From the IMG/VR virus record IMGVR_UViG_3300031857_000055, positions 1 to 64,000 of that record: a stretch of DNA of 64,000 nucleotides; one strand, given 5' to 3'. Source of the DNA: a virus. A program made the translations under genes and the position numbers. Positions 37,583 through 64,000 of this stretch are shown one piece after another (position 1 is the stretch's first letter; every line of letters starts with the position of its first letter). A model generated the notes under the pieces. It was not told the origin of the DNA and ran no database searches. It saw nothing but the letters and a program-made list of their open reading frames with translations.

Positions 37583-37915
37583 ATGAAGTTAGAACCCGGA
37601 AAATTTTGCCCACTGATTAAGAAAGACTGTGTAGGACTACAATGTTCATGGTTTACATTAGTTAGGGGCACGCATCCGCAGACGGGACAAGAAGTTGATG
37701 AATGGGGCTGTGCAGTAACATGGTTGCCGGTCTTGATGATTGAAAATAGTCAGCAGCAGCGACAAACAGGTGCCGCAGTTGAAAGTTTCAGAAACGAAGT
37801 AGTTAAGTCGGCTGAGAAAAGTCAGCATTTGATAGCAGCAGACCTTCAACATCGTATAGAGGAATCTAGAAGAATACAGACGCTACCTTATAGCGATACA
37901 GCAAATAATACATGA
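37583..37915 (+). CDS. Cys-rich fibre-associated protein (possible assembly chaperone)
   Basis: CPLIKKDCVGLQC...WGC followed by a helical QQRQTGAAVESFRNE segment, with AAGGT upstream. It directly follows the fibre gene. Confidence 0.65.
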   Translation: MKLEPGKFCPLIKKDCVGLQCSWFTLVRGTHPQTGQEVDEWGCAVTWLPVLMIENSQQQRQTGAAVESFRNEVVKSAEKSQHLIAADLQHRIEESRRIQTLPYSDTANNT

Positions 37916-37921
37916 TAAATA
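37914..37921 (+). promoter_or_regulatory. Putative late promoter (GATAAATA)
   Basis: Same box, upstream of GGAG and ATG 37945. Confidence 0.7.
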
Positions 37922-40178: not shown

Positions 40179-40186
40179 TCTAAATA
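40179..40186 (+). promoter_or_regulatory. Putative late promoter (TCTAAATA) heading the enzyme cluster
   Basis: Intergenic TAAATA box followed by AGGAG and ATG 40203. Confidence 0.6.
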
Positions 40187-40202
40187 CTCTTAGGAGTTTA
40201 CG

Positions 40203-40508
40203 ATGGATACTAAAACCTTAATTACCGAAGCAAAAGCTCGTTTTGCTCACAACTCAGCAAAAGATTATCTAAAAGAAAAGTACAATGCAAAGCTATTAGT
40301 AGCAGAGCAGGGTGGTCTATGGCGTGCTGACAAAGAAACTATCTCTTTCTTAACAGCATTCTTGAATGAAGAAGTCGTTCTCATGGATACGTTTGACAAT
40401 CCAGTAAAGGTTAATAGACAAGACCTTAAAGACAAGTTGTGTGAAACTTATTATAGAGTGATGAACGAATGGCACAATGAGTGGAAAGAGCTTGAAAGTA
40501 AGAGATAA
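40203..40508 (+). CDS. Hypothetical protein (weak resemblance to DUF4376-like fibre-associated proteins)
   Basis: Strong AGGAG RBS and a GGLWRAD...LMDTFDNPVKV pattern. The family resemblance is from memory only. Confidence 0.6.
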   Translation: MDTKTLITEAKARFAHNSAKDYLKEKYNAKLLVAEQGGLWRADKETISFLTAFLNEEVVLMDTFDNPVKVNRQDLKDKLCETYYRVMNEWHNEWKELESKR

Positions 40509-40509
40509 C

Positions 40510-40683
40510 ATGACCGAACTGGTATACGATTCAGATAACGGCATCATCGCATTAGCATTACAAATGTACGTTCACTACGCTACTGAAATGGGCGGCGATC
40601 AGCATTTGATTGACAGAGCAGGTGAACTAGAGTTTATCTTTAAGAATAAACCTACAACAGAAAGATACGAGTGGCCAGAATGA
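40510..40683 (+). CDS. Small hypothetical protein (57 aa)
   Basis: MTELVYDSDNG...YEWPE fills the gap and overlaps the next start by ATGA. Confidence 0.55.
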   Translation: MTELVYDSDNGIIALALQMYVHYATEMGGDQHLIDRAGELEFIFKNKPTTERYEWPE

Positions 40684-41486
40684 CTCGTGGCGTAATACTA
40701 TTTGCCTTTAATAGTCCCAAATACAATTACTATGATATGGCTAAACATACTGCAAAGCGTGTTGAGCATTTCTTAAAGTTGCCTGTTACGTTAGTAACAG
40801 ATGACGATTCTATGCCTAAAGACGAGTACGAACTTTGGGATAAAGTAATAAAAATCAAACCGGACAAGAATAACTTTCGTGACTGGGGTATGTGGATCAA
40901 TAAGGGCCGCTATATGGCATATGAATTAAGCCCGTATGACGAGTCACTATTGTTGGATGTAGACTATATCATCAACTCAAACAAACTACTAACCTTATTT
41001 GATATTGACACAGACTTTTGCTGCCACAATAGAACTAATTTCTTAATGAATGTTGGTGCAGCACAAGAACTACTAAGCGCATATAGTTATGAAACACTAT
41101 GGGCTACTGTTGTGAAGTTCCGCAAGTCTAATCGTGCAGAACAAATTTTTAAATGTTTAGAAATGGTACAAAAGAACTATGAACACTACGCCAACATTCA
41201 TAATTTTATCGCCCCTGTATATCGTAACGATTATGCTCTTACTCTCGCCCTTCGCATTGCTAACGGCCATAGTAGTGATTCCCGCGATGTTATTCCTTGG
41301 GATTTATTGCACGTTGGAAAAAACACGCAAGTTTATCGTGATGGTGATGACCAGCTCGGCACAGAGTATACGGTCATGTTTGACAACTGGCAACGGGGCA
41401 AAATAAGAAAAGAGTATATCACAATCAAAGACCAAGACTTCCACGTGATGGATAAAGAAATATACGTGGAGATGATTAATGAATAA
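40680..41486 (+). CDS. GT-A fold glycosyltransferase (GT8-like)
   Basis: RGVILFAFN, SPYDESLLLDVDY (DxD), RNDYAL and FHVMDK motifs. Confidence 0.7.
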   Translation: MTRGVILFAFNSPKYNYYDMAKHTAKRVEHFLKLPVTLVTDDDSMPKDEYELWDKVIKIKPDKNNFRDWGMWINKGRYMAYELSPYDESLLLDVDYIINSNKLLTLFDIDTDFCCHNRTNFLMNVGAAQELLSAYSYETLWATVVKFRKSNRAEQIFKCLEMVQKNYEHYANIHNFIAPVYRNDYALTLALRIANGHSSDSRDVIPWDLLHVGKNTQVYRDGDDQLGTEYTVMFDNWQRGKIRKEYITIKDQDFHVMDKEIYVEMINE

Positions 41487-42237
41487 AGGCTTTGTCATTA
41501 TGGCGCAGGGACTTGACTATGAAGTTTGCGCCGATGTTCTTAAGGATAGCATATTAAATGTGATGCCTGATGCTAACGTAACAATCATTACTACTGATAT
41601 GCTTCCATATGGCGATCAAGCTCCCGACACTGATTGGAAGCTACAGAATGATTGGCAAGTATACGAAGCAAGCCCTTACGAGTATACTATCAAGCTTGAA
41701 GCTGATATGTATTTGCCAAGGTCAATTGAATATTGGTGGGATGTACTACAGAATAGAGACTTAGTAGTAAGCACTACAATCAGAAACTTCAAGCAAGAAA
41801 TATCGGATATCAAAGCATATCGTAGATTCATTACTGACAACAATCTACCTGATACTTATAACGCTATTACGTATTTCCGCAAGAGTGAATTAGCAGAAAA
41901 GTTCTTCAATATTGTGCGTGACGTATTTGAGAATTGGGCTGAGTATAAATCTGTTCTCAAGTGTAACGTTGATGAGATTTGTACTACAGACTGGGCTTAT
42001 GCTATCGCTGCACACATCCTGGGTGAAGAGAATACTACGCTACCTCAATTCAAAGAAATGTCAATGATTCACATGAAGCAATTCATTAATGGTTGTCCTA
42101 CAGAGAAATGGACAGACAATTTGATTTATGAGAAGCTTCCGCACACTTTCAGAATCAATACTATTCCGCAATTGTATCCATTACACTACCATGTAAAAAG
42201 CTTAGCCAAAGAAATCAAGGGGAATAACAATGGATGA
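41479..42237 (+). CDS. GT-A fold glycosyltransferase (GT8-like), paralogue of the upstream gene
   Basis: KGFVIMAQ, SPYEYTIKLEADM (ExD), TTDWAYAIA, IHMK and LHYHVK motifs. Confidence 0.68.
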   Translation: MNKGFVIMAQGLDYEVCADVLKDSILNVMPDANVTIITTDMLPYGDQAPDTDWKLQNDWQVYEASPYEYTIKLEADMYLPRSIEYWWDVLQNRDLVVSTTIRNFKQEISDIKAYRRFITDNNLPDTYNAITYFRKSELAEKFFNIVRDVFENWAEYKSVLKCNVDEICTTDWAYAIAAHILGEENTTLPQFKEMSMIHMKQFINGCPTEKWTDNLIYEKLPHTFRINTIPQLYPLHYHVKSLAKEIKGNNNG

Positions 42238-42550
42238 AGTAATTGTTATTTGGGAAAGTCAGAAGGTTGACAAGCCAGAGTTTAGGCTGTATTATGATGA
42301 CAAGGGCTGTGTTATTAACTACACATGTGAACCTCATGAGGGTAACTATATTGTTATTGATGCCCTAACATTTGCTGAGGCTAGACCCGACATTAAAGTT
42401 ATTGACGGGAAGATCATTAAAAATCATTTTGGTTCAGTGATGAGTAAACTATGCAAAGACACTGAGGGTGTTCTTTGTGAGGTTGAAGACATAAGCATTA
42501 TCACTGAAACTGACGGACAACATTGGAAATTAAAAACTTATGAATTATGA
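42230..42550 (+). CDS. Hypothetical protein
   Basis: 106-aa ORF overlapping both neighbours, with GGGG upstream. Confidence 0.65.
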   Translation: MDEVIVIWESQKVDKPEFRLYYDDKGCVINYTCEPHEGNYIVIDALTFAEARPDIKVIDGKIIKNHFGSVMSKLCKDTEGVLCEVEDISIITETDGQHWKLKTYEL

Positions 42551-43490
42551 TGACATTGTAGATATCGCAGACCTAGACTGCATCTATCTAAGCTATGACG
42601 AACCTCAGAAAGAAGAATTCTGGATCAAGATTAAGAACATGGTTCCGTGGGCTAAGCGAGTAGACGGAGTTAAGGGTAGTGATGCTGCACACAAGGCAGC
42701 AGGAGAAGCAAGTGAGACAGAACGTTTCATTCTCATTGACGGCGACAACATGCCGGACGAAGACTTCTTCAATCTACAGTTAGACTTTACAGGATTAGAT
42801 GAAAACTACAAGTTAGCGCAATATCGTTGGAGAGCGGTCAACGCAATCAACGGTCTGCGTTATGGCAACGGCGGTATGAGTTCTTGGACTAAGACTTATG
42901 TTGCCAACATGAAGACCCATGAGACAAGTGACGGAAGTGATACAACAGCGGTTGATTTCTGCATGGATTCTTCAGATAATCTATACTGGGCAATGCACGA
43001 TTGCTACTCTACAACGTATCCTAACTACACTCCCTTCCAAGCGTGGAGAGCAGGATTCCGTGAAGGTGTCAAGATGGTGCTTGATCGGGGTGCAAAGCCC
43101 AGTATAGACGAATTTCGTGAACGAGTTGCTGGACGCAATCTAAACAATCTTACTATTTGGCATAACGTTGGCGCAGATGTAGAGAATGGTCTTTGGGCTA
43201 TCTATGGTGCAAGATTAGGCACGCATATGACCATGCTTACTGATTGGAATTATCGTGATGTTGCAGACTTTGACAACTACCCTGCATTGTGGGACAAATA
43301 TAAGCACAACAATCCAGTCCTTAGTGCTGGGTTTATCGGAGAAGAACTTGAGAGTAAGTTAGGATTACCAATGTGTACTCTTGATGCTGAACAGTCTAAG
43401 TTCTTCAAGCGCCACTATAATTCAGACAAGTATAACATGGGTCCTCTCGTTAAGGAGATGGACGTAATCCGCAGAATTGAAGGATGGTAA
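42540..43490 (+). CDS. GT-A fold glycosyltransferase-like protein (GT2-like)
   Basis: LSYDEP, RVDGVKGSDAAHKAA, FILIDGDN (DxD), YGNGG and QAWRAGFREGVK motifs. Confidence 0.65.
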   Translation: MNYDDIVDIADLDCIYLSYDEPQKEEFWIKIKNMVPWAKRVDGVKGSDAAHKAAGEASETERFILIDGDNMPDEDFFNLQLDFTGLDENYKLAQYRWRAVNAINGLRYGNGGMSSWTKTYVANMKTHETSDGSDTTAVDFCMDSSDNLYWAMHDCYSTTYPNYTPFQAWRAGFREGVKMVLDRGAKPSIDEFRERVAGRNLNNLTIWHNVGADVENGLWAIYGARLGTHMTMLTDWNYRDVADFDNYPALWDKYKHNNPVLSAGFIGEELESKLGLPMCTLDAEQSKFFKRHYNSDKYNMGPLVKEMDVIRRIEGW

Positions 43491-44887
43491 TGTCAGAATC
43501 AGAAACAGACAGAATTAAAAGAATCCGCGACTTTATTGATGTGAACACTACGCCTACATTCTGTTTGGCTAAGTGGCAGCATGTCACAATGTATCTACAG
43601 TCGGGTGAGACACACTCTTGCTATCACCCAAAGCCGCACAAGATTCCATTAGCTGAGTTAAAAGATAACCCAAGTGCATTGCATAATACGATGCACAAGA
43701 AGCTTGAGCGTAAAGAAATGCTTGAGGGGAAGAAGCCAGAAGGCTGTCAATATTGCTGGAACATTGAAGAAATGGGCCCTGACTATATCAGCGACAGACA
43801 TATTCGCAACGCAAGTATTTTTACAAAGGAACGCTATGAACAAGCCAGTAAGGGAGCCTGGGACCAAAACATCAACCCAGAGTATTTGGAAATTAATTTT
43901 GGTAACGAGTGTAATTTTAAATGCGGCTATTGCCATCCGAAATATAGTACAAGATTCTACAAAGAAATAGAAGACTTCGGTCCTGTTGAGAACGTAAAGA
44001 ATCATCGCTGCGATGTTGACTGGATGAAGCTATTTCAACGTGAAGAAGAAAACCCGTATGTTGATGCTTTCTGGGAATGGTGGCCTGAGCTACGCAAGAC
44101 ACTAAACATCATGCGTGTTACCGGTGGCGAACCCACACTGCACAAGTCAACATGGACACTGTTAGATAAGATTGATGAAGACCCAATGCCCTGGCTTGAG
44201 CTTAACATCAATAGCAATCTCGGCACTAAGAATATTCTTATTGATCGCCTTGCCGTCAAAGTAAAGAAGCTGGTAGACGAAAAGAAAATTCGTGCATTCA
44301 AGCTGTTTACAAGCATGGACACATGGGGTGAACGTGCTGAGTATATTCGCACTGGTCTTGAATTAGAGCTATGGGAAAAGAATTTTCACACCTATGTTCA
44401 AAAGAGTGAAAGCCCCATCACATTCATGATCACGTTCAACATCTTCTCAGTGACGAGCTTCAAGAGCTTGCTTGAGAAGTTCTTAGAGTGGCGCAGACAA
44501 TATGGCTGGGATGAAGAACGCAAGCAGCATATCATTCGCTTTGACACGCCGTATCTACGTGAGCCTATTCAATACGATATGAACATTCTTCCTAAGGAAC
44601 AGTTCATGCCCTACATGTACGAGTCATTGAAGTTTATGGAAGACAACTTAGATGACACTCGTGCAGACGCCTTCAGCACAATTGAATATGAAAAGTTCAA
44701 ACGAGTTGTTGACTATATGGCAGAAACAGTGTATAGTGAAGACAAGCTAATTGAAGGTCGCAGAGATTTCTATAATTGGTTTAATGAATTGGATGATCGT
44801 CGTGAGAATGATTTGTTGACTGTCTTCCCAGAAATGATGGATTTTTATAAATTATGTCAACAAGTAAATTTGACGAACCCTCTCTGA
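43490..44887 (+). CDS. Radical SAM enzyme with N-terminal twitch/SPASM-like domain (1)
   Basis: FCLAKW...HSCYH...GCQYCW, then CNFKCGYC (CX3CX2C), TGGEP and AEYIRTG. TAATG coupling sets the start at 43490. Confidence 0.9.
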   Translation: MSESETDRIKRIRDFIDVNTTPTFCLAKWQHVTMYLQSGETHSCYHPKPHKIPLAELKDNPSALHNTMHKKLERKEMLEGKKPEGCQYCWNIEEMGPDYISDRHIRNASIFTKERYEQASKGAWDQNINPEYLEINFGNECNFKCGYCHPKYSTRFYKEIEDFGPVENVKNHRCDVDWMKLFQREEENPYVDAFWEWWPELRKTLNIMRVTGGEPTLHKSTWTLLDKIDEDPMPWLELNINSNLGTKNILIDRLAVKVKKLVDEKKIRAFKLFTSMDTWGERAEYIRTGLELELWEKNFHTYVQKSESPITFMITFNIFSVTSFKSLLEKFLEWRRQYGWDEERKQHIIRFDTPYLREPIQYDMNILPKEQFMPYMYESLKFMEDNLDDTRADAFSTIEYEKFKRVVDYMAETVYSEDKLIEGRRDFYNWFNELDDRRENDLLTVFPEMMDFYKLCQQVNLTNPL

Positions 44888-45114
44888 GAAATAGAAAATG
44901 GGAGTGCATTGGTATGGATATGCCTAGCCAAAATGCCGTATATAATATCCGTGCGCAAGAAATCAGAGATTGGATTGAAGAACAACCGACAGTCATGTGG
45001 GCGCAGTATGGTATAGATGAGATTTACGAGGGTAAACCTATATCTGCAATGTTTGGGCAGAACTATGTCTTTACAGAAGAAATGGAGGCGTGGTTCACGT
45101 TAAGATGGGTATGA
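44854..45114 (+). CDS. Small hypothetical protein ending in WFTLRWV (start uncertain, 44854 or 44914)
   Basis: Fills the gap between two radical SAM genes and is ATGA-coupled to 45111. Confidence 0.6.
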   Translation: MSTSKFDEPSLRNRKWECIGMDMPSQNAVYNIRAQEIRDWIEEQPTVMWAQYGIDEIYEGKPISAMFGQNYVFTEEMEAWFTLRWV

Positions 45115-46373
45115 ATTTAACAGATAAAGCAAAGAATAGCAAAACTTTTTGTGTGTATCCCTGGATACACATTCATACCAGTCCAATGGGAGCTATTGCA
45201 CCATGCTGCATAGGGGCGTCGGTGTCAAACACCGATTTAGCCGACGAAGTAAAAGGAAAACGTCTTGATGATTTAGTAAATCATGACAGAATCAAGCAGT
45301 TACGGTTAGACATGCTTGCAGGAAAAAAATGTAGTGAATGTAAAATCTGTTATGAATTAGAAGATGCAGGGGTTGATAGTTTTAGAGTAACGGGCTTGAG
45401 AGAATATCCTGAGGTCGCTGAGGAATTAGTAACTGACACTAATATAGATGGATCACTGTCTAATTTTGAAATGCGTTATTTTGATATGCGCTTTAGTAAC
45501 ATTTGTAACTTCAAGTGTAGAACTTGCGGTCAAGAATATAGCAGTCAGTGGGAACAAGAAAATCTACGAAACAACGTATCATATGCAAGGATGTTTTCTA
45601 AAGGTGCCGAAACTGAATTACTTGAAGATGTGTTAGAACAAGTACCCAACTTTGAAACTGCGTATTTTGCAGGCGGTGAACCTCTGATTACCGAAGAACA
45701 TTATATTATCCTAGAAGAAATGATTCGTAAAGGTAAGACTGATGTGGCATTGCGGTATAATACTAACATGAGCAATATTAAATTCAAGAACAAGGATTTA
45801 ATGTCTCTTTGGAAAAACTTTAAACATGTTAATGTATCTGCGAGTATTGATCATTACGGTGAGAGAGCAGAATATATTAGGCATGGTACTAACTGGTCAG
45901 TTGTAGAAGAAAACTTAAAGATAGCTAAAGAATCAGCCGTGGTTAACTTATCCTTAAATACTGTTCTGAGCGTGTTTAACTTTTTTACCATTGACTCTTT
46001 TTACAAGTATATGCACCACGCTAACATCTATACTAAAAATAGTCCGGAATCAACATTATACTGCATGACCTCGCCTGATCACCTGGCATGTCATTGGTTG
46101 AATCCAGAACATAAACTTATAGGGAATGAGAGCTTAAGTAGAGCAATAAATTTTATGGAACAAGAAAATTTCCGAGAAGGTCACATCCGACATATCAAAG
46201 CAGCATTAAATTGGTCGTGCTCCAAAGACACTTCTGATAACATAGACGGGAGTGGTTATACTAACGCTATCAATTTCAGAAATTCTATTGAGGAACTAGA
46301 CAAGATCAGGGGAGAATCATTTGAGAAGGTATTTCCTGAATTGATTCCAATATTGGAATCTACATATGAATAA
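45111..46373 (+). CDS. Radical SAM enzyme with N-terminal twitch/SPASM-like domain (2)
   Basis: FCVYPWIH...APCC...ECKIC, CNFKCRTC, AGGEP and YNTN motifs. Confidence 0.92.
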   Translation: MNLTDKAKNSKTFCVYPWIHIHTSPMGAIAPCCIGASVSNTDLADEVKGKRLDDLVNHDRIKQLRLDMLAGKKCSECKICYELEDAGVDSFRVTGLREYPEVAEELVTDTNIDGSLSNFEMRYFDMRFSNICNFKCRTCGQEYSSQWEQENLRNNVSYARMFSKGAETELLEDVLEQVPNFETAYFAGGEPLITEEHYIILEEMIRKGKTDVALRYNTNMSNIKFKNKDLMSLWKNFKHVNVSASIDHYGERAEYIRHGTNWSVVEENLKIAKESAVVNLSLNTVLSVFNFFTIDSFYKYMHHANIYTKNSPESTLYCMTSPDHLACHWLNPEHKLIGNESLSRAINFMEQENFREGHIRHIKAALNWSCSKDTSDNIDGSGYTNAINFRNSIEELDKIRGESFEKVFPELIPILESTYE

Positions 46374-47595
46374 AGACTTTCTCTTAAACGATAGCAAGAC
46401 ATTTTGCATGTTCCCGTGGGTGCATTTAAATGCGACGCCTAAGGGTGACGTATATCCTTGCTGTAGTAATGACTATACAGACCCAGTTGGTAACACTAAG
46501 AATAATTCATTAGAAGAAATCTTTAACAGTCCAAAGATGAAAGAATTACGCTTGGATATGTTAAACGAGCGTAAAAATAAGATTTGCGACTTCTGCTATA
46601 AGCACGAAGAAGCTGGCCCGTATAGTTTCCGTAACTATAGCAAAGAACACTTTGGCAAATACTTTGATGAAATTGTACCCACCACACAAGATGATGGTAC
46701 TGTTGACGAATTCAAGATGAGATATTTTGATATCAGATTTAGTAACATTTGTAACTTTAAGTGCAGAACCTGTGGGTCAGAGTTTAGCTCTAAGTGGGGC
46801 GAAGAAATGCGCAAGAACTACGACCCTAATCATCCCGTGTTAATTCACGTTGATGATAATCGTGGCACAGTTCTTGATGAAGTGTTAGAGCATATTGAAC
46901 ATATTGATCTTGCATACTTTGCGGGCGGCGAACCACTCATCACTGATGAGCATTATACTATGCTTGAGGCAATGATTCGTAAGGGCCGCACTGACATTAC
47001 TCTACGCTATAACACAAATGCAAGCAATATCAAGTATAAAAAGCATGATGTACTTGATTTATGGAAGCATTTTAAAAAGATTGAACTAAGCTGTAGCATT
47101 GATCACTATGGCGAACGTGCTGAGTATATGCGTAAAGGAACAGACTGGGGAGTTGTAGAAAGCAATTTACTTACATTCCGTGAATTGGATTATGTTATCT
47201 TTCAGATGAATACTGTTTTCAGTATCTACAACTACCTCACTATCGGAGACTTTTATCAATATCTTAAGGATAAGAACATCGTGAGAACAGAAGATTGGTA
47301 TCATTCGCTCTATCTTGCCGTACATCCTAATTATTATTGTGCTAAAAGTCTCCCTAAAGAATTAAAAACAGTAGCAGGTGAAAAAGCATTAGCCTGGGCT
47401 AACGCTAATATGGACGACAAGACTTGTGTACCAAGACTCGTGGTAGATGCAGTGAACTTTGCGAACGATACCGATCAGTGGGGCGAAGTCAGAGACAAGT
47501 TCTTGATGCATACTAAGTCAGTTGACAGAATTAGAGGCGAAAACTTCTGGGAAACCTTCCCCGAATTAAATAGATTACAGGATTTATATGAATGA
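46366..47595 (+). CDS. Radical SAM enzyme with N-terminal twitch/SPASM-like domain (3), close paralogue of (2)
   Basis: FCMFPWVH...YPCC...CDFC. RFSNICNFKCRTCG and SIDHYGERAEY are shared verbatim with gene (2). Confidence 0.92.
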   Translation: MNKDFLLNDSKTFCMFPWVHLNATPKGDVYPCCSNDYTDPVGNTKNNSLEEIFNSPKMKELRLDMLNERKNKICDFCYKHEEAGPYSFRNYSKEHFGKYFDEIVPTTQDDGTVDEFKMRYFDIRFSNICNFKCRTCGSEFSSKWGEEMRKNYDPNHPVLIHVDDNRGTVLDEVLEHIEHIDLAYFAGGEPLITDEHYTMLEAMIRKGRTDITLRYNTNASNIKYKKHDVLDLWKHFKKIELSCSIDHYGERAEYMRKGTDWGVVESNLLTFRELDYVIFQMNTVFSIYNYLTIGDFYQYLKDKNIVRTEDWYHSLYLAVHPNYYCAKSLPKELKTVAGEKALAWANANMDDKTCVPRLVVDAVNFANDTDQWGEVRDKFLMHTKSVDRIRGENFWETFPELNRLQDLYE

Positions 47596-47714
47596 ACGAA
47601 AAGAAGTACTGTCCCCCATTATCATTGACCACTCAGTGGGAATTTTGGGCTTGGATTTATAATATGAAGCGAAATGACAGTGCAAGGTTCAAGAAGAAGA
47701 AACAGTATGATTGA
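47592..47714 (+). CDS. 40-aa Trp-rich basic peptide
   Basis: Not in the ORF track. It reads MNEKKYCPPLSLTTQWEFWAWIYNMKRNDSARFKKKKQYD, with AGGA about 9 nt upstream, an ATGA overlap with the previous stop and an 8-nt overlap with the next start. Confidence 0.55.
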   Translation: MNEKKYCPPLSLTTQWEFWAWIYNMKRNDSARFKKKKQYD

Positions 47715-56086: not shown

Positions 56087-57183
56087 TTATAAATCAAGAC
56101 AACATATTATATTACGGAAACAGCGGCCCCGAACTTAGACTACAAAGTTCATTGTTTAATATCAGAGACTTCAGTGATACAGACTATTGGTATATTGATT
56201 TCTTTCACGGTGAAGCACTTAAGGATGTGCATCAACATCTTCCCGAAGATGTACTGAATCGAATTCGTTTGGGTAGCGTTACATTAATATTGAACAATAG
56301 TCACGAAGCATACCATGATGTTGTAGAATATATCTATTTGTATTTGGTAGATGGTCTTAGTATTCCGGCTCAGCACATTACACTATTGAGTGAGAGTGCT
56401 ATTATTAATGAAGAAGTCAAGACAATTGCTAATAAGTATAATCTACCTGAAATAAAAACTGAGTGGCTTAGAATATTTGAACACAACATTCATGTTGCTA
56501 CTACCAAAACATTGAACACACTACAAGAAAAAGAATACACTAAAAAGTTTCTGAATCTAAATCGCAGATGGAGACCGCACAGGCCATTGTTTGTGGCATT
56601 GCTCAAGATTAATGACCTATTAGATCAGGGTTATGTGAGTATGGCTCCAGCAGATGACAATCAAGATTGGGAGAGAGCGTGGGACATGATTTCATATCTA
56701 GAGCCTGACTTGATCCCGCATAAAGATAATCTTGCTACTATTCCTGATTTATATCTGGATACTCGTGAAATGCATATCAATCAAGTGGCGTTGACTGACA
56801 GCACCGATCAATATTATCTTGACTCATATTTCAGCATTGTATCAGAGACAAACTTCTATAAAGAATATGGCCCAGGATTGTTTCTTAGCGAAAAGGTATT
56901 CAAGCCTGTCAGCAGAAGGCATCCTTTCTTAGTATTAGCTCGTCCACATACTATCAAGAAATTCAACGAGCTTGGCTATCGTAGCTTTAGCGAAATAATT
57001 GATGAGTCATACGATAATGAGTTTGATGACCGCAAACGAATGATGATGGTTCTTGAAGAAACTAAACGTCTCTGCAACCTAACAGTTGATGAGTTGAAAC
57101 ATTTCTTAAAGGTGGCAAGAGAGATAACACTACACAACTACCTACTACTCAGAAACAAAAGAAACTTTATTACAAAATTATGA
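56083..57183 (+). CDS. GT-B glycosyltransferase-like protein, GT10-like motif (c)
   Basis: KFLNLNRRWRPHR, FSIVSETNFY...FLSEKVFKP...HPFLVL and GYRSF..IDESYD motifs. Confidence 0.55.
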   Translation: MIINQDNILYYGNSGPELRLQSSLFNIRDFSDTDYWYIDFFHGEALKDVHQHLPEDVLNRIRLGSVTLILNNSHEAYHDVVEYIYLYLVDGLSIPAQHITLLSESAIINEEVKTIANKYNLPEIKTEWLRIFEHNIHVATTKTLNTLQEKEYTKKFLNLNRRWRPHRPLFVALLKINDLLDQGYVSMAPADDNQDWERAWDMISYLEPDLIPHKDNLATIPDLYLDTREMHINQVALTDSTDQYYLDSYFSIVSETNFYKEYGPGLFLSEKVFKPVSRRHPFLVLARPHTIKKFNELGYRSFSEIIDESYDNEFDDRKRMMMVLEETKRLCNLTVDELKHFLKVAREITLHNYLLLRNKRNFITKL

Positions 57184-57959
57184 ACCTAGATTTAACAAAA
57201 TACAAGAGGCTGTTTACATTTGGATGTAGCTTTACAAACTACAGATTTCCTACCTGGGCGCATATACTTAGTAAGTCTATGCCTGACTGTGAGTTTCATA
57301 ACTTAGGCAGAGGCAGCGGAGGCAACCTGTTCATTGCAAATAGAATCACTGAGGCTAATAAGAAGTTCAAGTTCTGTGAGACTGATTTGGTTATAGTAAT
57401 GTGGTCTACGTTATGCAGAGAAGATAGATTTGTAAACGACAATTGGGTATTGGCTGGCAACATCTTTACGCAAGGGTATTACGATGACAAGTTTGTAAAG
57501 AAGTTTTGTGATCCAGTTGGTTATCTTATTAGAGATTTATCCTTGATTGAATTGTCTAAAACATATCTGAACAGTTTGCTATGTGACAACTATATGATGC
57601 TGAGCGTTCCATTCACTAATCAGATTGTGGAAGAAACAAAGACTACAACTGATGTATTAGCAACATACCGGGATCTTATCAATAGTTTCCCTGCATCAAT
57701 GTTTGAGCTTGAAATGAATAATTCGTGGACTAACGATGTGATTTATAGAATGTCTGATGGTCAAGTTCAAGTAGATTATCATCCGACTCCAATGAACTAC
57801 TATAACTATTTGACCAAGCTCGGCTTTGCTCTAAATGAGGATAGTAAGTTATATGCATTGGAAAGCGACAAGACATATAGGACCGTAGAATCCATTGAGC
57901 AACTACAAGCATTATTCTATGAGGAGTATGACTTCTTCACTACAAAAAACATGTGGTGA
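57180..57959 (+). CDS. SGNH/GDSL-like hydrolase or acyltransferase (b)
   Basis: FGCSFT, NLGRGSGGN, CREDRF and DYHP motifs. Confidence 0.7.
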   Translation: MNLDLTKYKRLFTFGCSFTNYRFPTWAHILSKSMPDCEFHNLGRGSGGNLFIANRITEANKKFKFCETDLVIVMWSTLCREDRFVNDNWVLAGNIFTQGYYDDKFVKKFCDPVGYLIRDLSLIELSKTYLNSLLCDNYMMLSVPFTNQIVEETKTTTDVLATYRDLINSFPASMFELEMNNSWTNDVIYRMSDGQVQVDYHPTPMNYYNYLTKLGFALNEDSKLYALESDKTYRTVESIEQLQALFYEEYDFFTTKNMW

Positions 57960-57968
57960 AATGTGTCC

Positions 57969-57976
57969 AATAAATA
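57969..57976 (+). promoter_or_regulatory. Putative late promoter (AATAAATA), leaderless
   Basis: Box in a 23-nt intergenic gap, with ATG 57983 6 nt downstream and no Shine-Dalgarno. Confidence 0.6.
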
Positions 57977-57982
57977 GTTGCA

Positions 57983-58780
57983 ATGTTAGATTTAAGCAAA
58001 TATCGTCGTTTTTTCGCATTTGGCTGTAGCTTTACATCATACAAGACACCGACCTGGGCTGATATCGTAGCTAAAGAAATGCCAAATGCAGAGTATTATA
58101 ATTTTGGACAAGGCGGTGGCGGCAATCTATTCATCAACAATCGTGTAGCTCAAGCTAATTTAAAATATAGTTTCAATGAACATGATTTGGTTATGATCAT
58201 GTTTACTACCGTATGCAGAGAAGATCGCTTTCTTAATGGTAGGTGGGAGTCGCACGGAAATGTATTTAATCAATCTTTTTACAGTAAAGAATTCGTAAAG
58301 AACTATTGCGATCCGGTTGGCTATCTTGTTAGAGATGCTGCACTAATTGAGATGACTACGGGTTATGTGACAAATTTGCCATGCACTACGAAATTTTTGT
58401 CAATGGTTGACCTATCACTGGAAGCTGGGTTATTAACTGAAACTGCAAGCATAAACAGTGACCGTGCTGCTGTTACTAAGATAAAAAAAATATATCGTGA
58501 TAAAATGAAATTTCCGGCAGTAATCAATAATGGAGAAGTCAGTTTCAAAGGCGTAGAACTTATTGATAAATTTGGTAAGTTATTTAAAGACGGTCATCCA
58601 CTGGCTGACGATTATGCAGAGTTCTTACATAGCATTAACTTCCCTATCACTGAGCGGGGACTATCATATGTTGAAGAAGCGATGACTAAACTAAAAAATG
58701 CAAAAACCTGGGACGATGTTAGAGCATCATTTCCAGACATAAGGCAGCATCAAGAATATAGAAACAGAAGCGTAATTTAA
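57983..58780 (+). CDS. SGNH/GDSL-like hydrolase or acyltransferase (c), tandem paralogue of (b)
   Basis: FGCSFT, NFGQGGGGN, CREDRF, CDPVGYL and DGHP motifs. Confidence 0.7.
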   Translation: MLDLSKYRRFFAFGCSFTSYKTPTWADIVAKEMPNAEYYNFGQGGGGNLFINNRVAQANLKYSFNEHDLVMIMFTTVCREDRFLNGRWESHGNVFNQSFYSKEFVKNYCDPVGYLVRDAALIEMTTGYVTNLPCTTKFLSMVDLSLEAGLLTETASINSDRAAVTKIKKIYRDKMKFPAVINNGEVSFKGVELIDKFGKLFKDGHPLADDYAEFLHSINFPITERGLSYVEEAMTKLKNAKTWDDVRASFPDIRQHQEYRNRSVI

Positions 58781-58792
58781 TAGGAAAAATAT

Positions 58793-59983
58793 ATGAACAA
58801 AGTAGCAATGATCGGCGTTGGCAAACTAGGACAAGATTGCGCCGAAGTTATGGCAACAAAGTATGATGTTGTGGGGTACGATATTGAGCCTAGAAACCCC
58901 GGCTTTCCAATGCGAGATACGATTAAAGAAGCAGTTGAAGATAGAGACATTATCTTTATTGCTGCGCCTACTCCACATGACCCAATGTATGGGGGAGAAA
59001 CTCCCACGAGTCATTTACCTAATAAAGATTTTGACTATACGATTGTCTCAGAAATCTTGGATGAGGTTAACAAGTATACCAATCAGAATCAATTAGTAGT
59101 TTTGATTAGCACTGTGTTGCCTGGCACTGTACGTAATATCTTAAGACCTAAAATCACTAACGCACGATTTATCTATAACCCATATCTTATTGCTATGGGT
59201 ACAATCAAGTACGATATGGTTAATCCTGAAATGATTATCATTGGTACAGAAGATGGTACTGCCACAGAAGATGCATTAGAATTAGTTAATTTCTATGTGC
59301 CATTAATGCAGAACAATCCACGATATGAATTGGGCACCTGGGAAGAAGCAGAGTCAATTAAAATCTTCTACAACACCTTTATTAGCACGAAAGTTGCATT
59401 AGTCAATATGATTCAGGATGTTGCCGAACGCAGCGGTAATATGTGTGTTGACGTTGTAACTGGAGCACTAGAACGTTCTACGCAGCGTATTTTGGGTCCG
59501 GCATATATGAAGGCTGGTATGGGAGACGGCGGCGCATGTCACCCTCGTGACAATATCGCATTGAGATATCTTGCTGAGAAGCTTGACTTAGGGTATGATC
59601 TATTTGATAGTATCATGCGGGCACGAGAAGTGCAAGCAGAAAATATGGCTAAAGCATTGTTGAAGTATGGTAAGAACGTAACCATCATCGGCAAGGCATA
59701 TAAGCCAGGAGTGCATTACACAAACGGTAGCTCAAGTATGCTGGTTGGATACTATGTTGAACAACATGGTGGAAACATCAACTACTATGATGAACACACT
59801 GGCGACTTAGATTTGGCCGAAGATTGGACTGAAGTCTATCTGATCGGTTACTGGGATGACTATGTAGAGGAATTAAAGTTCAGTGATGAGAACATTGCGA
59901 CTGTAGTTGATCCCTGGCGCAGATGGACAACTGATAGATGTTCAGGTCACGTAGTACATTATGGTAACTCTAGGAAGCAATAA
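58793..59983 (+). CDS. UDP-glucose/GDP-mannose 6-dehydrogenase family protein
   Basis: GVGKLG, FIAAPTP, ISTVLPGT, YNP, AESIKIFYNTF, GMGDGGACHPRD (catalytic Cys) and GKAYKP motifs. Confidence 0.92.
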   Translation: MNKVAMIGVGKLGQDCAEVMATKYDVVGYDIEPRNPGFPMRDTIKEAVEDRDIIFIAAPTPHDPMYGGETPTSHLPNKDFDYTIVSEILDEVNKYTNQNQLVVLISTVLPGTVRNILRPKITNARFIYNPYLIAMGTIKYDMVNPEMIIIGTEDGTATEDALELVNFYVPLMQNNPRYELGTWEEAESIKIFYNTFISTKVALVNMIQDVAERSGNMCVDVVTGALERSTQRILGPAYMKAGMGDGGACHPRDNIALRYLAEKLDLGYDLFDSIMRAREVQAENMAKALLKYGKNVTIIGKAYKPGVHYTNGSSSMLVGYYVEQHGGNINYYDEHTGDLDLAEDWTEVYLIGYWDDYVEELKFSDENIATVVDPWRRWTTDRCSGHVVHYGNSRKQ

Positions 59984-61140
59984 TGGATCTGTCAAAACAT
60001 GATGCATATAGATATCCGGAATATGATGACTACATGAAATTGCTTTGGCAAAATTATTGGCCAAATAACATTCATCTATTTGATAAAGTAAGACACATCT
60101 ATGCCGGTGCCCATGCATCTATGAGTTTCAAATGGAGACCAATCGAATCTATTATTGAAGAAATAAAAGATTTCTATCAATCAGGCATAAGAATATTTTT
60201 CTTTGAATGCTTGACTGAGGGTGTTATCATTGATGGCATTGAAAAGATTGCTAAGGTAGCACTACACTTTTCAAACTTTCCCGATATCAAATTATTCTAT
60301 TGGTCAGGAGATTACACAGCAGAAAAACATGTTAACAAGCATTTAGGTAGTATAGGCATACCTAAAAAGTTCGCTGTAATCGGTACCAGTCACCTAGAAC
60401 TAACGGGCAAAACATATCCGCCATATGATAAAGATTATGCCGTTGGACCTAGAGAAAAGAAGTTTCTATGCTTTAACAAAGTCCATCGCCAGCATAGAAT
60501 TGACTTATTAGAGTACGTAGTTACTAACAATCTATTGGATGATAGCTATTATTCATTTGATTGTAGCGAAGATAATTTAGAACTATTAGTTAACGATATC
60601 AACTATCCGGGCATTAGATCAATAAAAGATCGTATCCCACTAATATTGAACAAAACACCGGAACGTGATAATCCGGTCAATATCATTGAAGACGATCACA
60701 AATATTTTGAAAACACATATTTTAGTGTAGTAACCGAAACGTTATTCTATCGTGACCCCATAGCACCTAAGCAAAGATTAATGATGCATGTTCCCGGAAC
60801 TTATCCCGGAAGATTCGTTACTGAGAAAACATTTAAGTGTATTGTAATGAAGCACCCCTTTGTTGTTTTGGGTCCATATAAGATGTTAGAGTTCATGAAG
60901 TCAAGGGGTTATAAAACTTTCAGCCCTTTTATTGATGAGAGTTATGACGATATTGAGAACGATGACGAAAGATTACTTGCTGTCGGTAACGAAATTAAAA
61001 GACTATGTAATCTAAGCGAAGACGAATTGGTAAGATTCACCGAGTTTGCTAAACCTATCGTAGAACACAATGAGAATGTTGTTCGCAATGTTACCGATTT
61101 CACTACTATTAATAATTTAGGCGACTATATAACTGTGTAA
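59983..61140 (+). CDS. GT-B glycosyltransferase-like protein, GT10-like motif (d)
   Basis: KFLCFNKVHRQHR, YFSVVTET...FVTEKTFKCI..KHPFVVLG and GYKTF..IDESYD motifs. Confidence 0.55.
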   Translation: MDLSKHDAYRYPEYDDYMKLLWQNYWPNNIHLFDKVRHIYAGAHASMSFKWRPIESIIEEIKDFYQSGIRIFFFECLTEGVIIDGIEKIAKVALHFSNFPDIKLFYWSGDYTAEKHVNKHLGSIGIPKKFAVIGTSHLELTGKTYPPYDKDYAVGPREKKFLCFNKVHRQHRIDLLEYVVTNNLLDDSYYSFDCSEDNLELLVNDINYPGIRSIKDRIPLILNKTPERDNPVNIIEDDHKYFENTYFSVVTETLFYRDPIAPKQRLMMHVPGTYPGRFVTEKTFKCIVMKHPFVVLGPYKMLEFMKSRGYKTFSPFIDESYDDIENDDERLLAVGNEIKRLCNLSEDELVRFTEFAKPIVEHNENVVRNVTDFTTINNLGDYITV

Positions 61141-61143
61141 ATA
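61136..61143 (+). promoter_or_regulatory. Putative late promoter (TGTAAATA)
   Basis: TAAATA box spanning the previous stop, followed by GGGAG and TTG 61167. Confidence 0.5.
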
Positions 61144-61166
61144 CTACACGATATAGGGAGCAACAC

Positions 61167-63431
61167 TTGGATTTTAATCTAAAATCACTGGCTAAAAAAG
61201 AATTAAAGCCTAATGAAAGACCAACTGAGGACGTTGGTGATCTTCGTCACCGCAGCATGATGGAAGCAATTGCTCCTTATGCTAAAGACGTTGTGGTCAA
61301 TGCAAAGAATTTGACACCGGTCTACGTAGATTATAAGACCCGTGATACTAAGATGGTTCTTGTATTATGTCCGGAATGGAGCCCATACATGCCTCCGTTC
61401 AGTCTTGCAAGACTGAGTGGTGTTGCAAAGGCTTCTGGGTATGAGACACATATCATGGATTTAAACGTTAAGGCTTATAACGCATACCGTGATGATTGGC
61501 AACCTAACAACAAGCTACCATTTAGATTGTGGGACCCATCAAGCTCATGGCACTGGCTAGGTGACACTTACATGAATGATATTCATCCTGTACTTGAGCC
61601 TATTCTAAGCGCAGCAGTAGATGAAATCATTGAAATGAATCCTCAAGTTGTTGGGTTCAGCGTGTATTATATCAGTGAGGAACCCACTAAGTGGATGGCT
61701 CAAGAAATTAAGAGACGCAATCCAAACATTCTCATTGCAGTTGGTGGCCCTAACGTACACAAGAGCTGGTTTGATATTCGTCCTTACTATGATTATATCA
61801 TCGTAGGCGAAGGTGAGCAGAATCTACTCGTAATGCTTGATGAAATTGAAGAAGGCAAGCGCCCTTTTCCTGGTCAGCCCAGAGTGCTGACACAGCCTGA
61901 GAATCAACGTATCAACATCAATGGTCTGCCTATGCCAGACTATGAATCAATTGACTTCTCACTATACGAAGTGCCTAATGGCGTCAACAGTGAGATTAGC
62001 CGCGGCTGTACTGCTAAGTGTACGTTCTGTGAAGAAACACACTTTTGGAAGTATCGTCAACGTCAAGCAGTTGACTTAATCACCGAAGTTGAATGGCTAT
62101 ACTATAACAAGGGCACCGACGTTATTTGGTTCATTGATAGTCTTATCAACGGCAACATCAACGAGCTTAGAGCGTTTGCACTTGCACTAAAAGAGAAGGG
62201 ACTTAAGGTTCGCTTTACTGGATATGCCAGACACGACGGTAGAATGACATTAGAATATCTACAAGACTTAGCTGACGGTGGATGCATCATGTTCAATTTC
62301 GGATGTGAATCAGCATCGCAGAAAGTACTTGACGATATGCACAAGGGCGTTACTATTGCAGAAATGGAGCAGAACTTCATTGACTGCAAGAAGGTAGGTA
62401 TTTGGTGCGCTACTAACTGGATTGTTGCATTCCCCACAGAAGACTTCCAAGACTATAGCGACACCATGACGTTTATGTGGCGTATGCGTAACAACAATGT
62501 TAACAATATGGGATTGGGAGTAGGATATGGATTAGGCCCCGAAACAATCGTGGGGCAGAATCCACACGCATATAATATCAGCTTCCATAAGTATCAGGGA
62601 CACTGGATCAGTAAAGACTTAGCAATGGGCGGACCTCATGTCATGACTCGTGTTAAGAATATTCATATTTGGCTGGACTTCTTTAAAAATTGTACAGATG
62701 TTCCGATTGGCTACCCTATTAGGCATAATCTAGAAAAAGAACATTATAAGATTAAACTCAATAACCCAAATCTACAGAAAGAAATGGCATATGAAAAGTT
62801 TGACTATAACATCATTCCTCCCTTAGGAGATAACAATCCTTTTGCCAATCAGTTAGTCAATGAAATGTGGCCCTTCTTTAGAAATCTGTGGAGAGCTAGG
62901 GGAGGTTACGAAGCAGAAATTTACTTCAACCCTGAGATAGACTTGAAAGAGTTCGGAACTCAGTATGGTCCAGGTCAGTACTGGGCAACGTTTAAGTTCA
63001 AGATTACTGATGAGGGTCAATGGAACGCTCACTTCAATATCAAGTTTGAACAGGTTGACAATCCTCTAGATGATCGTGAACGTCCACCCGAAGGTCGTAA
63101 GGGTCCTTTCTATGCGCAGGACTATTCACGATTGCAATCCAATACAGTAAAGAGAGCCAGAAAGCTTGCTAAGCCTACTTGGAGTAATCAAGAAGGTAGA
63201 TCAGGACAAGACTTTGCTGACTTGCTTGACGAAGAAGCATATTTGAACGCTACCATTGACTTTAGCTTTCACTTAGATTGGCAGGGTTCAGGTGACTGGA
63301 GCGATCATGAAAAGTATCGTGTTGATGTAAGTAGCACATCACGAGACATTATTCCAGAAAAGGAAAGTGACACCGGATCAGATATTGTGTCTAGTATTTC
63401 ATTGGATAGTATAAGGCGTAAACCAAAATGA
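61167..63431 (+). CDS. Cobalamin-dependent radical SAM enzyme (b) with long C-terminal extension
   Basis: TTG start with GGGAG. PPFSLARL, VVGFSVY, VGGPN, GEGE, SRGCTAKCTFC, FIDSLING and FGCES motifs. Confidence 0.9.
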   Translation: MDFNLKSLAKKELKPNERPTEDVGDLRHRSMMEAIAPYAKDVVVNAKNLTPVYVDYKTRDTKMVLVLCPEWSPYMPPFSLARLSGVAKASGYETHIMDLNVKAYNAYRDDWQPNNKLPFRLWDPSSSWHWLGDTYMNDIHPVLEPILSAAVDEIIEMNPQVVGFSVYYISEEPTKWMAQEIKRRNPNILIAVGGPNVHKSWFDIRPYYDYIIVGEGEQNLLVMLDEIEEGKRPFPGQPRVLTQPENQRININGLPMPDYESIDFSLYEVPNGVNSEISRGCTAKCTFCEETHFWKYRQRQAVDLITEVEWLYYNKGTDVIWFIDSLINGNINELRAFALALKEKGLKVRFTGYARHDGRMTLEYLQDLADGGCIMFNFGCESASQKVLDDMHKGVTIAEMEQNFIDCKKVGIWCATNWIVAFPTEDFQDYSDTMTFMWRMRNNNVNNMGLGVGYGLGPETIVGQNPHAYNISFHKYQGHWISKDLAMGGPHVMTRVKNIHIWLDFFKNCTDVPIGYPIRHNLEKEHYKIKLNNPNLQKEMAYEKFDYNIIPPLGDNNPFANQLVNEMWPFFRNLWRARGGYEAEIYFNPEIDLKEFGTQYGPGQYWATFKFKITDEGQWNAHFNIKFEQVDNPLDDRERPPEGRKGPFYAQDYSRLQSNTVKRARKLAKPTWSNQEGRSGQDFADLLDEEAYLNATIDFSFHLDWQGSGDWSDHEKYRVDVSSTSRDIIPEKESDTGSDIVSSISLDSIRRKPK

Positions 63432-64000
63432 ATGATATAGTTGATAAGTTTGAAAAGCTGATTGCTAATTTTTATGGTGCACCATATGCAGTAGCAACAG
63501 ATTGCTGCACTCATGCCATTGAGTTGTGCTTGCGAATTGAAAAGCCGGAATATCCTATCAACTGCCCTACTAGAACTTACATAAGCGTACCCATGACATT
63601 CATGAAACTTGGAATGGAGTGGCAGTTTGACGATTATGATTGGGAAAATTACTATCACATAGGATGCACGAGCATCATTGATGCCGCAGTGTATTGGAAA
63701 CCTCGCGGGTATGTTCCTGGCTCAAAAATGTGTCTCAGCTTTCAGCACAAGAAACATTTGAGTTTGGGTCGCGGGGGCATGATCTTATTAGACAACTATG
63801 ATGATTATGTAACTCTCAAAAAAATGAGCTATGATGGAAGAATCCCTAACACACCTTGGGCAGAACAAGACATTGATACTGTCGGCTATCACTATTACAT
63901 GACTCCCGAAACCGCACAGACAGGCATCTATCGTTTTTGTGCAGCAGAAGTAAAAGAACCTCGTAAATGGTCATCACAAGATTATCCTGACCTATCAACA
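63428..64000 (+). CDS. DegT/DnrJ/EryC1/StrS-family PLP-dependent sugar aminotransferase, compact form, runs off the window
   Basis: Not in the ORF track. My translation gives MNDIVDKFEKLIANFYGAPYAVATDCCTHAIELCL...TYISVP...IIDAA...CLSFQHKKHLSLGRGGMIL...GYHYYMT. ATGA-coupled to the previous gene. Confidence 0.88.
   Translation, partial: MNDIVDKFEKLIANFYGAPYAVATDCCTHAIELCLRIEKPEYPINCPTRTYISVPMTFMKLGMEWQFDDYDWENYYHIGCTSIIDAAVYWKPRGYVPGSKMCLSFQHKKHLSLGRGGMILLDNYDDYVTLKKMSYDGRIPNTPWAEQDIDTVGYHYYMTPETAQTGIYRFCAAEVKEPRKWSSQDYPDLST

Follow-up and report, generated by a model that had tools for sequence, protein, structure and literature searches.

We analysed a 64,000-nucleotide stretch of viral DNA (the window; bases 1-64000 of the linear IMG/VR record IMGVR_UViG_3300031857_000055, which is 106,541 bp long and has an estimated completeness of 29%) that carries a large cluster of radical S-adenosylmethionine (SAM) enzymes, glycosyltransferases and sugar-modifying enzymes straight after fibre-like genes. 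By its sequence, the source is an uncultured Rak2/Atu_ph07-like jumbo phage with a genome of ~360 kb; its structural proteins are distantly related (~29% identity) to those of Agrobacterium phage Atu_ph07, PA5oct and Rak2-like jumbo phages, and a megablast search of cultured phage genomes with 20 kb of the window returned no nucleotide match. The cluster comprises 31 co-oriented genes on the + strand, neighbours mostly overlapping by a few bases, and extends over ~29.7 kb from position 40203 to ~69.9 kb of the contig (69902), equivalent to ~8% of a 360-kb genome. A first-pass annotation had described more than 23 kb of such genes behind the fibre genes; this layout was recovered, but the cluster does not end at position 64000 and continues for ~6 kb, stopping before the gene for a 1,996-aa protein. 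The described gene content was confirmed as real and nearly as noted, with the labels GT10 and SGNH standing at the level of fold or motifs only. Genes are named here by their start positions; L001 is the locus label for the same contig past the window end (L001:6911 is contig position 69911).

Four consecutive genes (43484..44887, 45090..46373, 46366..47595 and 47674..48984) encode radical SAM enzymes with an N-terminal twitch domain, the first being a divergent paralogue, and score 311, 358, 379 and 362 bits, respectively, against the model NF033640, for which the curated cut-off is 170 bits. The domain order is evident in 45090, where a Pfam SPASM match (residues 21-87) precedes the radical SAM domain (134-292), and in an alignment of 10 diverse N-twitch members, in which C14, C33, C74 and C77 and then C129, C133 and C136 of the CX3CX2C motif are invariant (numbering of 46366). 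The fifth gene, 48969..49931 (Pfam Radical_SAM), has the reverse arrangement, a CX3CX2C motif (C25, C29, C32) followed by a C-terminal Cys-rich, twitch/SPASM-like domain with invariant C259, C278, C301, C306 and C308; at 34 bits it is not a member of NF033640. The five twitch/SPASM enzymes counted at first pass are thus all present. Among solved structures, the nearest to the twitch family are viperin (E 5e-4) and, very weakly, the twitch domain of BtrN (E 0.64), and the N-twitch enzymes gave MoaA-type matches in NCBIfam.

Two further genes, 54116..56086 and 61167..63431, encode class B radical SAM enzymes in which a B12-binding domain (PF02310) is followed by a radical SAM domain (PF04055), all above the Pfam cut-offs and as called before; 54116 is a probable methyltransferase, and a TAAATA motif lies at 61138, ahead of 61167. 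The best NCBIfam model was KedN5-like for 54116 (246 bits, under the cut-off of 700) and, for 61167, rSAM_ocin_1 (104 bits, under the cut-off of 282), which resembles C-methyltransferases of ribosomally synthesized and post-translationally modified peptides (RiPPs). Both proteins are far under every curated cut-off and fall outside the GenK-, KedN5- and PhpK-type subfamilies. Together with the very weak BtrN match, this reduces the likeness to BtrN, NeoN, GenK and MoeK5 that had been drawn earlier to analogy alone.

Bacterial members of NF033640 were found in Bdellovibrionota, Flavobacteriales and Hyphomicrobiales, often in arrays of up to seven copies. Their 112 neighbouring open reading frames (ORFs) include 14 for radical SAM proteins, 4 for ABC transporters, 3 for GT2 and 2 for GT1 glycosyltransferases and 3 for PqqD; since these neighbourhoods lack a sugar signature and some contain PqqD, they hint at peptide substrates in some cases. 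Five Bdellovibrionota or Bacteriovoracaceae contigs from metagenome-assembled genomes (MAGs; L097, L104, L118, L167 and L169), which belong to predatory lineages, carry 4-7 NF033640 paralogues each, some with B12 radical SAM genes, and with PqqD-domain and ABC-transporter genes as neighbours.

SPASM and twitch enzymes are mostly peptide maturases, and the whole radical SAM core (the five twitch-type and the B12 enzymes) might accordingly modify residues of a fibre or other virion protein by epimerisation, C-methylation or cross-linking, as in proteusins and other RiPPs, with the transferases glycosylating the same protein. The place of the core close behind the fibre genes would suit such a role, as would the RiPP C-methyltransferase model being the best NCBIfam neighbour of 61167 (104 bits) and the peptide-recognition domain PqqD occurring in 3 of the 112 bacterial neighbours. 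However, the phage cluster showed neither PqqD nor a RiPP recognition element, it lacks an ORF that resembles a Cys- or Gly-rich precursor, and the small ORFs 40203 and 42230 are conserved like enzymes (53-65% identity). Furthermore, all RiPP-type scores are far under their cut-offs, and the nearest solved relatives of the twitch family, to judge from the viperin and MoaA-type matches, act on nucleotides. We consider modification of protein residues by the radical SAM core decidedly unlikely.

Between the fibre genes and the radical SAM array lie the genes for three GT-A-like proteins, 40671..41486 and 41479..42237 (both GT8/glycogenin-like) and 42540..43490, which has an invariant DGD motif. 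The first two are paralogues (hhalign 99%); 40671 has no Pfam match and keeps D96 and D98 invariant, and the profile of 41479 matches glycogenin-1 (GT8) weakly over residues 2-101 (E 0.004). Fold matches of 42540 include the GT-A structures of Mimivirus R655 and PBCV-1 A64R, and in the ESM Atlas its matches were confined to unnamed viral clusters. The three GT-A enzymes of the first-pass annotation can therefore be upheld at the fold and profile level only.

A second set of transferases follows the radical SAM array. For 56083..57183 (AlphaFold model, predicted local distance difference test 82), the top 50 VIA matches are all GT-B enzymes, with a Foldseek probability of 1.0. By blastp, 59983..61140 is linked to 56083 (4e-32), 49931..51259 to 59983 (1e-28) and 56083 (7e-23), and the divergent 52232..53299 to 56083 (2e-8) and 49931 (5e-7), here through the C-terminal motif region only; all-against-all comparison added a fifth paralogue past the window, the C-terminal GT-B half of a 568-aa protein (contig 65849-67555). 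Four of these had been called GT10-like, and the GT-B fold holds for the modelled protein and, by paralogy, for the other three; GT10 membership is not established, because GT10 ties with many other GT-B families in the fold matches of 56083, among them GT4-type enzymes, protein O-glycosyltransferases and T4 DNA glucosyltransferases. LmbT, MshA and BshA are also among the matches. Profile searches of the PDB with 40671, 42540 and the GT-B and SGNH-like families yielded nothing.

Enzymes of sugar-nucleotide metabolism are interspersed with the GT-B genes. In a phmmer search, 51219..52232 matched the Arabidopsis GDP-mannose 3,5-epimerase (GME; PDB 2C59) over residues 16-331 with E 2e-92 and 313 bits, and 8SG0 with 308 bits, compared with 99 bits for the next-best family, UDP-xylose synthase. 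These scores make a solid case that 51219 is a genuine GME, predicted to give GDP-L-galactose or GDP-L-gulose, and they bear out the proposed start of the pathway from GDP-mannose, the enzymes being soluble. The NDP-sugar 6-dehydrogenase reported before is likewise present: 58793..59983 has the N-terminal and central UDPG_MGDP_dh domains of Pfam and scores 151 bits against TIGR03026, slightly under the cut-off of 190. The DegT aminotransferase (63428..64000, with the ORF ending at contig 64018) fared less clearly. It matches Pfam DegT with 47.7 bits (cut-off 19.8) and has the pyridoxal phosphate (PLP)-lysine motif SFxxxK in the form SFQHKK, but at 196 aa against a 360-position profile it is about half the normal length, only positions 26-98 and a second short stretch align, and the full-length two-domain fold-type-I architecture (~360-400 aa) is lacking. 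This short form (63428-64000; also L001:428-1018) is kept in the relatives with 55-62% identity.

Past the window the cluster continues with a methyltransferase found by sequence search (contig 64015-64869), an amidinotransferase (contig 64841-65827) that matches StrB1 (PDB 1BWD) over its full length (E 2e-65, 225 bits, residues 8-327) and has a C-terminal GGCFHC motif, the 568-aa protein, a fourth SGNH-like protein (contig 67552-68301) and a carbamoyltransferase with both NodU/TobZ-type domains (contig 68409-69902). The three SGNH-like proteins within the window belong to two families, both with invariant G-C-S, G-N and D/E..H blocks: type a (53296..54162; G9-C10-S11, G75-N76, H265) and type b, represented by b1 (57180..57959; G15-C16-S17, G48-N49, D199, H201) and its paralogue b2 (57983..58780; 39% identity, E 4e-64). 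None of the three has a sequence match in Pfam, NCBIfam or the PDB. An hhalign comparison with E. coli TesA placed the C-terminal block of 53296 on block V (DGIHP) with a non-significant probability of 5% and gave nothing for the 57180 family, for which the ESM Atlas, queried with 57180, returned unnamed viral clusters only. The three SGNH proteins named at first pass are therefore recognisable by motif blocks, but these come with no statistical match.

Two small proteins complete the window part of the cluster, 'a' (40203..40508; 101 aa) and 'b' (42230..42550; 106 aa); homologue searches found each in 52 loci, with median identities of 65% and 53%, respectively, and neither has a family match. 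In this phage a gap of 162 nt (40508-40671) separates 'a' from 40671, which has a GTG start, whereas in relatives the two genes abut or overlap; a different true start of 40671 or a small deletion are the candidate explanations. For 13 unassigned ORFs, no match came from Pfam at an E-value limit of 10 or from NCBIfam at a limit of 1, and PHROGs yielded nothing useful; after grouping into families by all-against-all blastp, the cluster ORFs without a Pfam match could be accounted for as GT-A-like, GT-B, SGNH-like or small proteins. As stated in the first-pass annotation, membrane proteins and nucleotide kinases are missing: no 19-residue window of any cluster protein reaches a Kyte-Doolittle value of 1.6, and no kinase was detected among the cluster ORFs with Pfam.

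The combination of a StrB1-like protein (225 bits to 1BWD), a DegT-like protein, a NodU/TobZ-type protein and B12 and twitch radical SAM enzymes is reminiscent of an aminoglycoside-like set, and the GT-B fold matches to LmbT, MshA and BshA point the same way. The product might then leave the virion aside, either as an aminoglycoside-like oligosaccharide that is set free when the cell lyses and acts against the host, competitors or grazers, or as a glycan passed to host machinery that remodels the surface of the infected cell. The first version is downgraded because Pfam searches of the cluster ORFs turned up neither an enzyme that forms cyclitols nor an exporter or resistance gene (from 40203 to contig 69902, the families of 2-deoxy-scyllo-inosose synthase and inositol-phosphate synthase are both absent), and the amidinotransferase block is dispensable, since it is missing from the complete genome G001. 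The second version, to the extent that it depends on undecaprenyl phosphate and Wzx, is downgraded because such genes are absent from near-complete relatives: the lipid-carrier transferases PF02397 and PF00953, the flippase PF01943 and the nucleotidyltransferase PF00483 were not found in four relatives that are 92-100% complete, which also upholds the earlier statement that flippases are lacking. With no membrane protein in the cluster either, and with a fixed place among structural genes and a common promoter box that suit a virion component better, we regard a product acting off the virion as unlikely.

This fixed place became apparent in the relatives of the source phage. With one radical SAM protein as query, 126 related IMG/VR stretches and 3,265 metagenome proteins were retrieved. 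Two relatives, one of them G001, are complete with terminal repeats (360,683 and 364,247 bp) and match the gene order of the source phage at 45-90% protein identity: baseplate, giant protein, fibres, cluster, carbamoyltransferase, repeat protein and then GNAT, MoxR and VWA genes. A core block of fibre genes F2 and F3, 'a', GT-A1, GT-A2, 'b', GT-A3 and the radical SAM array was present in 45 full-length loci and varied almost only in the copy number of the radical SAM genes; in the 8.7 kb that follow, the same 45 loci show 26 different gene orders composed of the same families. The amidinotransferase block belongs to this variable part. The linkage of the cluster to tail genes, on which the first-pass interpretation had been made to depend, holds in every relative that reaches the fibres and in both complete genomes, and even two marine contigs with only 27-50% identity (L134 and L135) carry fibre, GT-A, radical SAM, GT-B and dehydrogenase genes together.

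Some of these loci deserve separate mention. L134 and L135 are binned as a Rickettsiales MED657 MAG, yet their gene content is phage-like; L111 and L174, in a MAG labelled Haliscomenobacter, carry GT-A2, 'b', GT-A3, radical SAM and GT-B genes and a carbamoyltransferase that is 61-62% identical, and no match to a fibre gene was found in them. The four contigs probably come from jumbo phages and were binned wrongly, and their labels may hint at hosts. G001 (L093) carries additional DNA inside the otherwise compact core, both between the homologues of 43484 and 46366 and between other core genes; one stretch of ~2.8 kb follows the first radical SAM gene. This DNA does not match any window protein and may represent mobile elements or further genes.

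Three fibre-like genes directly precede the cluster. F2 (37945..39183, + strand) encodes a tail fibre or spike that ends in an intramolecular-chaperone domain (Pfam Peptidase_G2 IMC, E 2.7e-7). It shares its N-terminal 280 aa with the first of the three, which starts at 35334, and its position directly upstream of the cluster is kept in relatives. F3 (39199..40152, + strand) is a fibre-like protein without a family match and is rich in Thr, Ser, Ala, Gly and Asn (T 16.7%, A 13.9%, G 12%, S 9.8%, K 0.3%); a homologue is present in 53 loci, and F3 may be considered a candidate glycan acceptor. At the end of the F3 gene we noticed a weak terminator-like hairpin with a T-run (40128..40147, + strand; 8 pairs, 3 of them G-C), and the T-run past the stop codon is kept in relatives.

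The first-pass annotation had also reported late boxes. In its T4 form, TATAAATA, the box is missing from the + strand and has a single match, on the - strand only; the claim survives in a different form, as the clade has a box of its own that departs from TATAAATA at the first positions. The motif GATAAATA occurs four times on the + strand, three times at 29-41 nt upstream of structural genes, as at 37914..37921 ahead of the fibre gene 37945 (motif scan), and once in the gap after the giant ORF, ~160 nt before 34700. Of the 25 TAAATA sites on the + strand of 83 kb, 10 lie 10-45 nt upstream of ORF starts, a zone that makes up 2% of the sequence, which corresponds to an enrichment of ~20-fold. 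In the window, boxes of the form (G)ATAAATA or TAAATA are located on the + strand at 1902, 11480, 34541, 37914, 40181, 57969 and 61138. The box at 40181..40186 is 22 nt upstream of the first cluster gene, 40203, and is found in 44 of 44 distinct sequences upstream of homologues of this gene, as part of atcTAAATAc, with GGAG after it; ahead of fibre gene 37945 it is present in 38-40 of 38-40 distinct relatives, at a distance of 25-35 nt from the start. Internal core genes are never preceded by TAAATA in the relatives, whereas 49931, 58793 and 61167 of the variable block often are. Scans for sigma-70 promoters and terminators stayed at or below shuffle expectation.

These boxes are probably the late promoters of the clade. 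Because the box at the cluster head is common to the fibre and baseplate genes, the cluster would form a transcription unit with the same type of promoter, and with a gp55-like late sigma factor encoded by the same phage (921-1841, - strand; sequence search) it is a reasonable inference that the cluster is expressed late.

Promoter type and location also bear on the phage DNA as a possible acceptor, in which case the cluster would hypermodify it with complex sugars and thereby evade restriction and CRISPR, as in T-even phages. In favour of this, known pathways of thymidine hypermodification make use of radical SAM and PLP enzymes. Variable transferase sets such as those seen here are also typical of DNA-glycosylating phages, as far as the work of Pyle et al. 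2024 is cited in PMC12619734. However, five relatives (four of them at least 92% complete) each have one thymidylate-synthase-family gene (PF00303), of ThyA-like strength (345-360 bits), and no second copy that could be a hydroxymethylase, and Pfam detected no nucleotide kinase or DNA-binding domain in the cluster. The DNA reading is weakened by these gene counts. Genes for DNA modification, moreover, usually belong to the early or middle class and lie with the replication genes, and the cluster stands behind fibre genes with the promoter box of structural genes. We judge the DNA reading very improbable. The earlier view that DNA and the host surface fit less well than the virion as targets is in line with the single ThyA-like gene and with the lack of carrier-lipid and flippase genes in the clade.

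Taken together, a late-type, fibre-linked, cytoplasmic glycan pathway is well founded, and we infer that its product is attached to the virion and that the radical chemistry is directed at sugars. In the absence of a lipid-carrier transferase, flippase or nucleotidyltransferase from near-complete relatives, the pathway must use host nucleotide sugars and a soluble acceptor. A virion protein is the best-fitting target because of the position of the cluster, its promoter type and the succession of a conserved core and a variable block; the contiguity of glycosyltransferase and structural genes without membrane machinery is also what is expected of virus-encoded virion glycosylation. The explanation that we prefer, at somewhat less than an even chance, is that the cluster is a cytoplasmic glycan-tailoring pathway for virion proteins; a virion protein is the most likely acceptor, probably the neighbouring fibre proteins. 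More tentatively, we suggest that in a widespread clade of uncultured ~360-kb phages the fibres, or some other virion protein, bear a glycan that is particular to each lineage and built from L-configured, uronic, C-methylated, guanidino and carbamoylated sugars, and that the NF033640 enzymes act on nucleotide sugars or protein-bound sugars.

In such a pathway, nucleotide sugars would be taken from the host, rebuilt into rare sugars and moved stepwise onto the soluble acceptor. GME would give GDP-L-galactose or GDP-L-gulose and the dehydrogenase a uronic acid, while the GT-A trio may attach a conserved core sugar to the acceptor. C-H chemistry (oxidation, epimerisation, formation of C-C or C-X bonds) could be the task of the five twitch-type radical SAM enzymes, which would act on the nucleotide sugar or on the sugar once attached; C-methylation could fall to the two B12 enzymes, and the SGNH-like proteins could add or remove O-acyl groups. 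In this phage, amino, guanidino, methyl and carbamoyl groups may come from the DegT-like and StrB1-like proteins, the methyltransferase and the carbamoyltransferase. The variable block would give each phage lineage its own glycan, like O-antigen loci and the fibril glyco-clusters of Megavirinae.

Several points weigh against the virion glycan pathway. We found no characterised member of NF033640 in the literature, and the bacterial genes of this family adjoin mainly other radical SAM genes, with GT1 or GT2 in only 5 of 112 neighbours. Among the fold matches of the modelled GT-B protein, T4 DNA glucosyltransferases and protein glycosyltransferases reach the same Z, the SGNH assignment is made at motif level only, and the late timing is predicted from a promoter motif. 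Cultured phages with distant homologues, Vibrio phage K566 for example, have no annotated fibre gene near them, although most genes there are unannotated; in the regions of K566 and of Ralstonia phage RsoM2USA with distant radical SAM homologues, almost all products are listed as 'hypothetical protein'.

Farther upstream of the fibre-like genes, the window encodes the gp55-like sigma factor, virion proteins, baseplate hub and wedge proteins and, after the wedge genes, a giant ORF of 6,548 aa (14892-34538, + strand) that matches PHROG 10938 ('virion structural protein', 707 bits), is 45-58% identical in complete relatives and has no internal repeats detectable by self-BLAST. Just past the cluster lies the gene for the 1,996-aa protein (L001:6911-12901; contig 69911-75901), which has no Pfam or PHROG match. 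It contains ~18 tandem repeats of ~67 aa (W.IP..VD...FDFSWxPDPxxPPYIYxFGxQW...GATExKY) and a C-terminal domain homologous to the GT-A-like 42540, but without the DGD motif. Its homologues span 1,544 to 3,330 aa, and the protein could be an acceptor with a variable number of repeats or a glycan-binding protein. It is followed (L001:14073-19291; contig 77073-82291) by genes for a 692-aa GNAT-domain protein, a MoxR-type AAA ATPase and a DUF2201 metallopeptidase/VWA protein, all three of which are kept in complete relatives.

If the virion glycan pathway is real and its radical SAM enzymes act on sugars, it would represent the first viral glycan pathway that depends on radical SAM enzymes and would provide a first function for NF033640, with GDP-L-galactose or GDP-L-gulose, uronic acids and transferases as a genomic context for assigning it. 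It would also place a StrB1-like amidinotransferase outside antibiotic pathways, and the hypervariable tailoring block beside fibre genes suggests that glycan diversity matters in the dealings of the phage with its host or with predators. At least 126 viral contigs and more than 3,000 metagenome homologues of one enzyme point to an abundant biosynthetic system that has so far gone unrecognised; a published description of such a cluster was not found in the literature. Virion glycosylation by virus-encoded systems is established for giant viruses and a few mycobacteriophages. To our knowledge, such a system has yet to be described in a jumbo phage, or with radical chemistry in any virus.

The cluster can be compared with several known systems. 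With the NF033640 family, which is defined by sequence alone and whose bacterial members lie outside a phage-type glyco context, the four enzymes of the window have in common an N-terminal domain with four invariant Cys and the CX3CX2C motif. T4-type DNA glucosylation relies on soluble, phage-encoded GT-B enzymes that use host nucleotide sugars, as modelling suggests for this phage, which differs in genomic place and promoter type and, as judged from five relatives, in having no hydroxymethylase candidate. Aminoglycoside tailoring (StrB1, BtrN, GenK/GenD1, TobZ) finds its counterparts here in a full-length StrB1 homologue, NodU/TobZ-type domains and class B and twitch-type radical SAM enzymes; however, the radical SAM enzymes are outside the BtrN, GenK and KedN5 subfamilies, four of the five twitch-type enzymes carry the auxiliary-cluster domain at the N terminus, and a cyclitol synthase, an exporter and a resistance gene are missing from the cluster.

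The mycobacteriophage systems, which reportedly consist of a few transferases, resemble the cluster in that their glycosyltransferases are phage-encoded and cytoplasmic, have their genes next to structural genes and work on capsid or tail proteins with no membrane machinery; here the decoration of virion proteins is what the gene arrangement suggests. The present cluster is ~10 times larger and also covers radical chemistry and the rebuilding of sugar nucleotides. Mycobacteriophage capsid and tail glycans have been described by Freeman et al. 2023, as far as cited in PMC12619734. The 'moraphage' of PMC12619734 belongs to a different lineage of up to 307 kb, and radical SAM enzymes go unmentioned in its description. 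Reports of radical SAM, B12 radical SAM, amidinotransferase or carbamoyltransferase genes in a glycan cluster of a virus were not found, the giant-virus papers themselves being unchecked for these. In the Megavirinae, clusters of 6-33 genes with clade-specific content glycosylate the fibrils with rare, bacterial-type sugars (PMC10117803). In Mimivirus, Moumouvirus and Tupanvirus, attachment to the particle has been shown, whereas the present phage, which is tailed and has a bacterial host, is known from its genes alone. Both systems are virus-encoded and host-independent and combine nucleotide-sugar pathways with glycosyltransferases, in the phage as 31 genes that form a conserved core and a hypervariable block.

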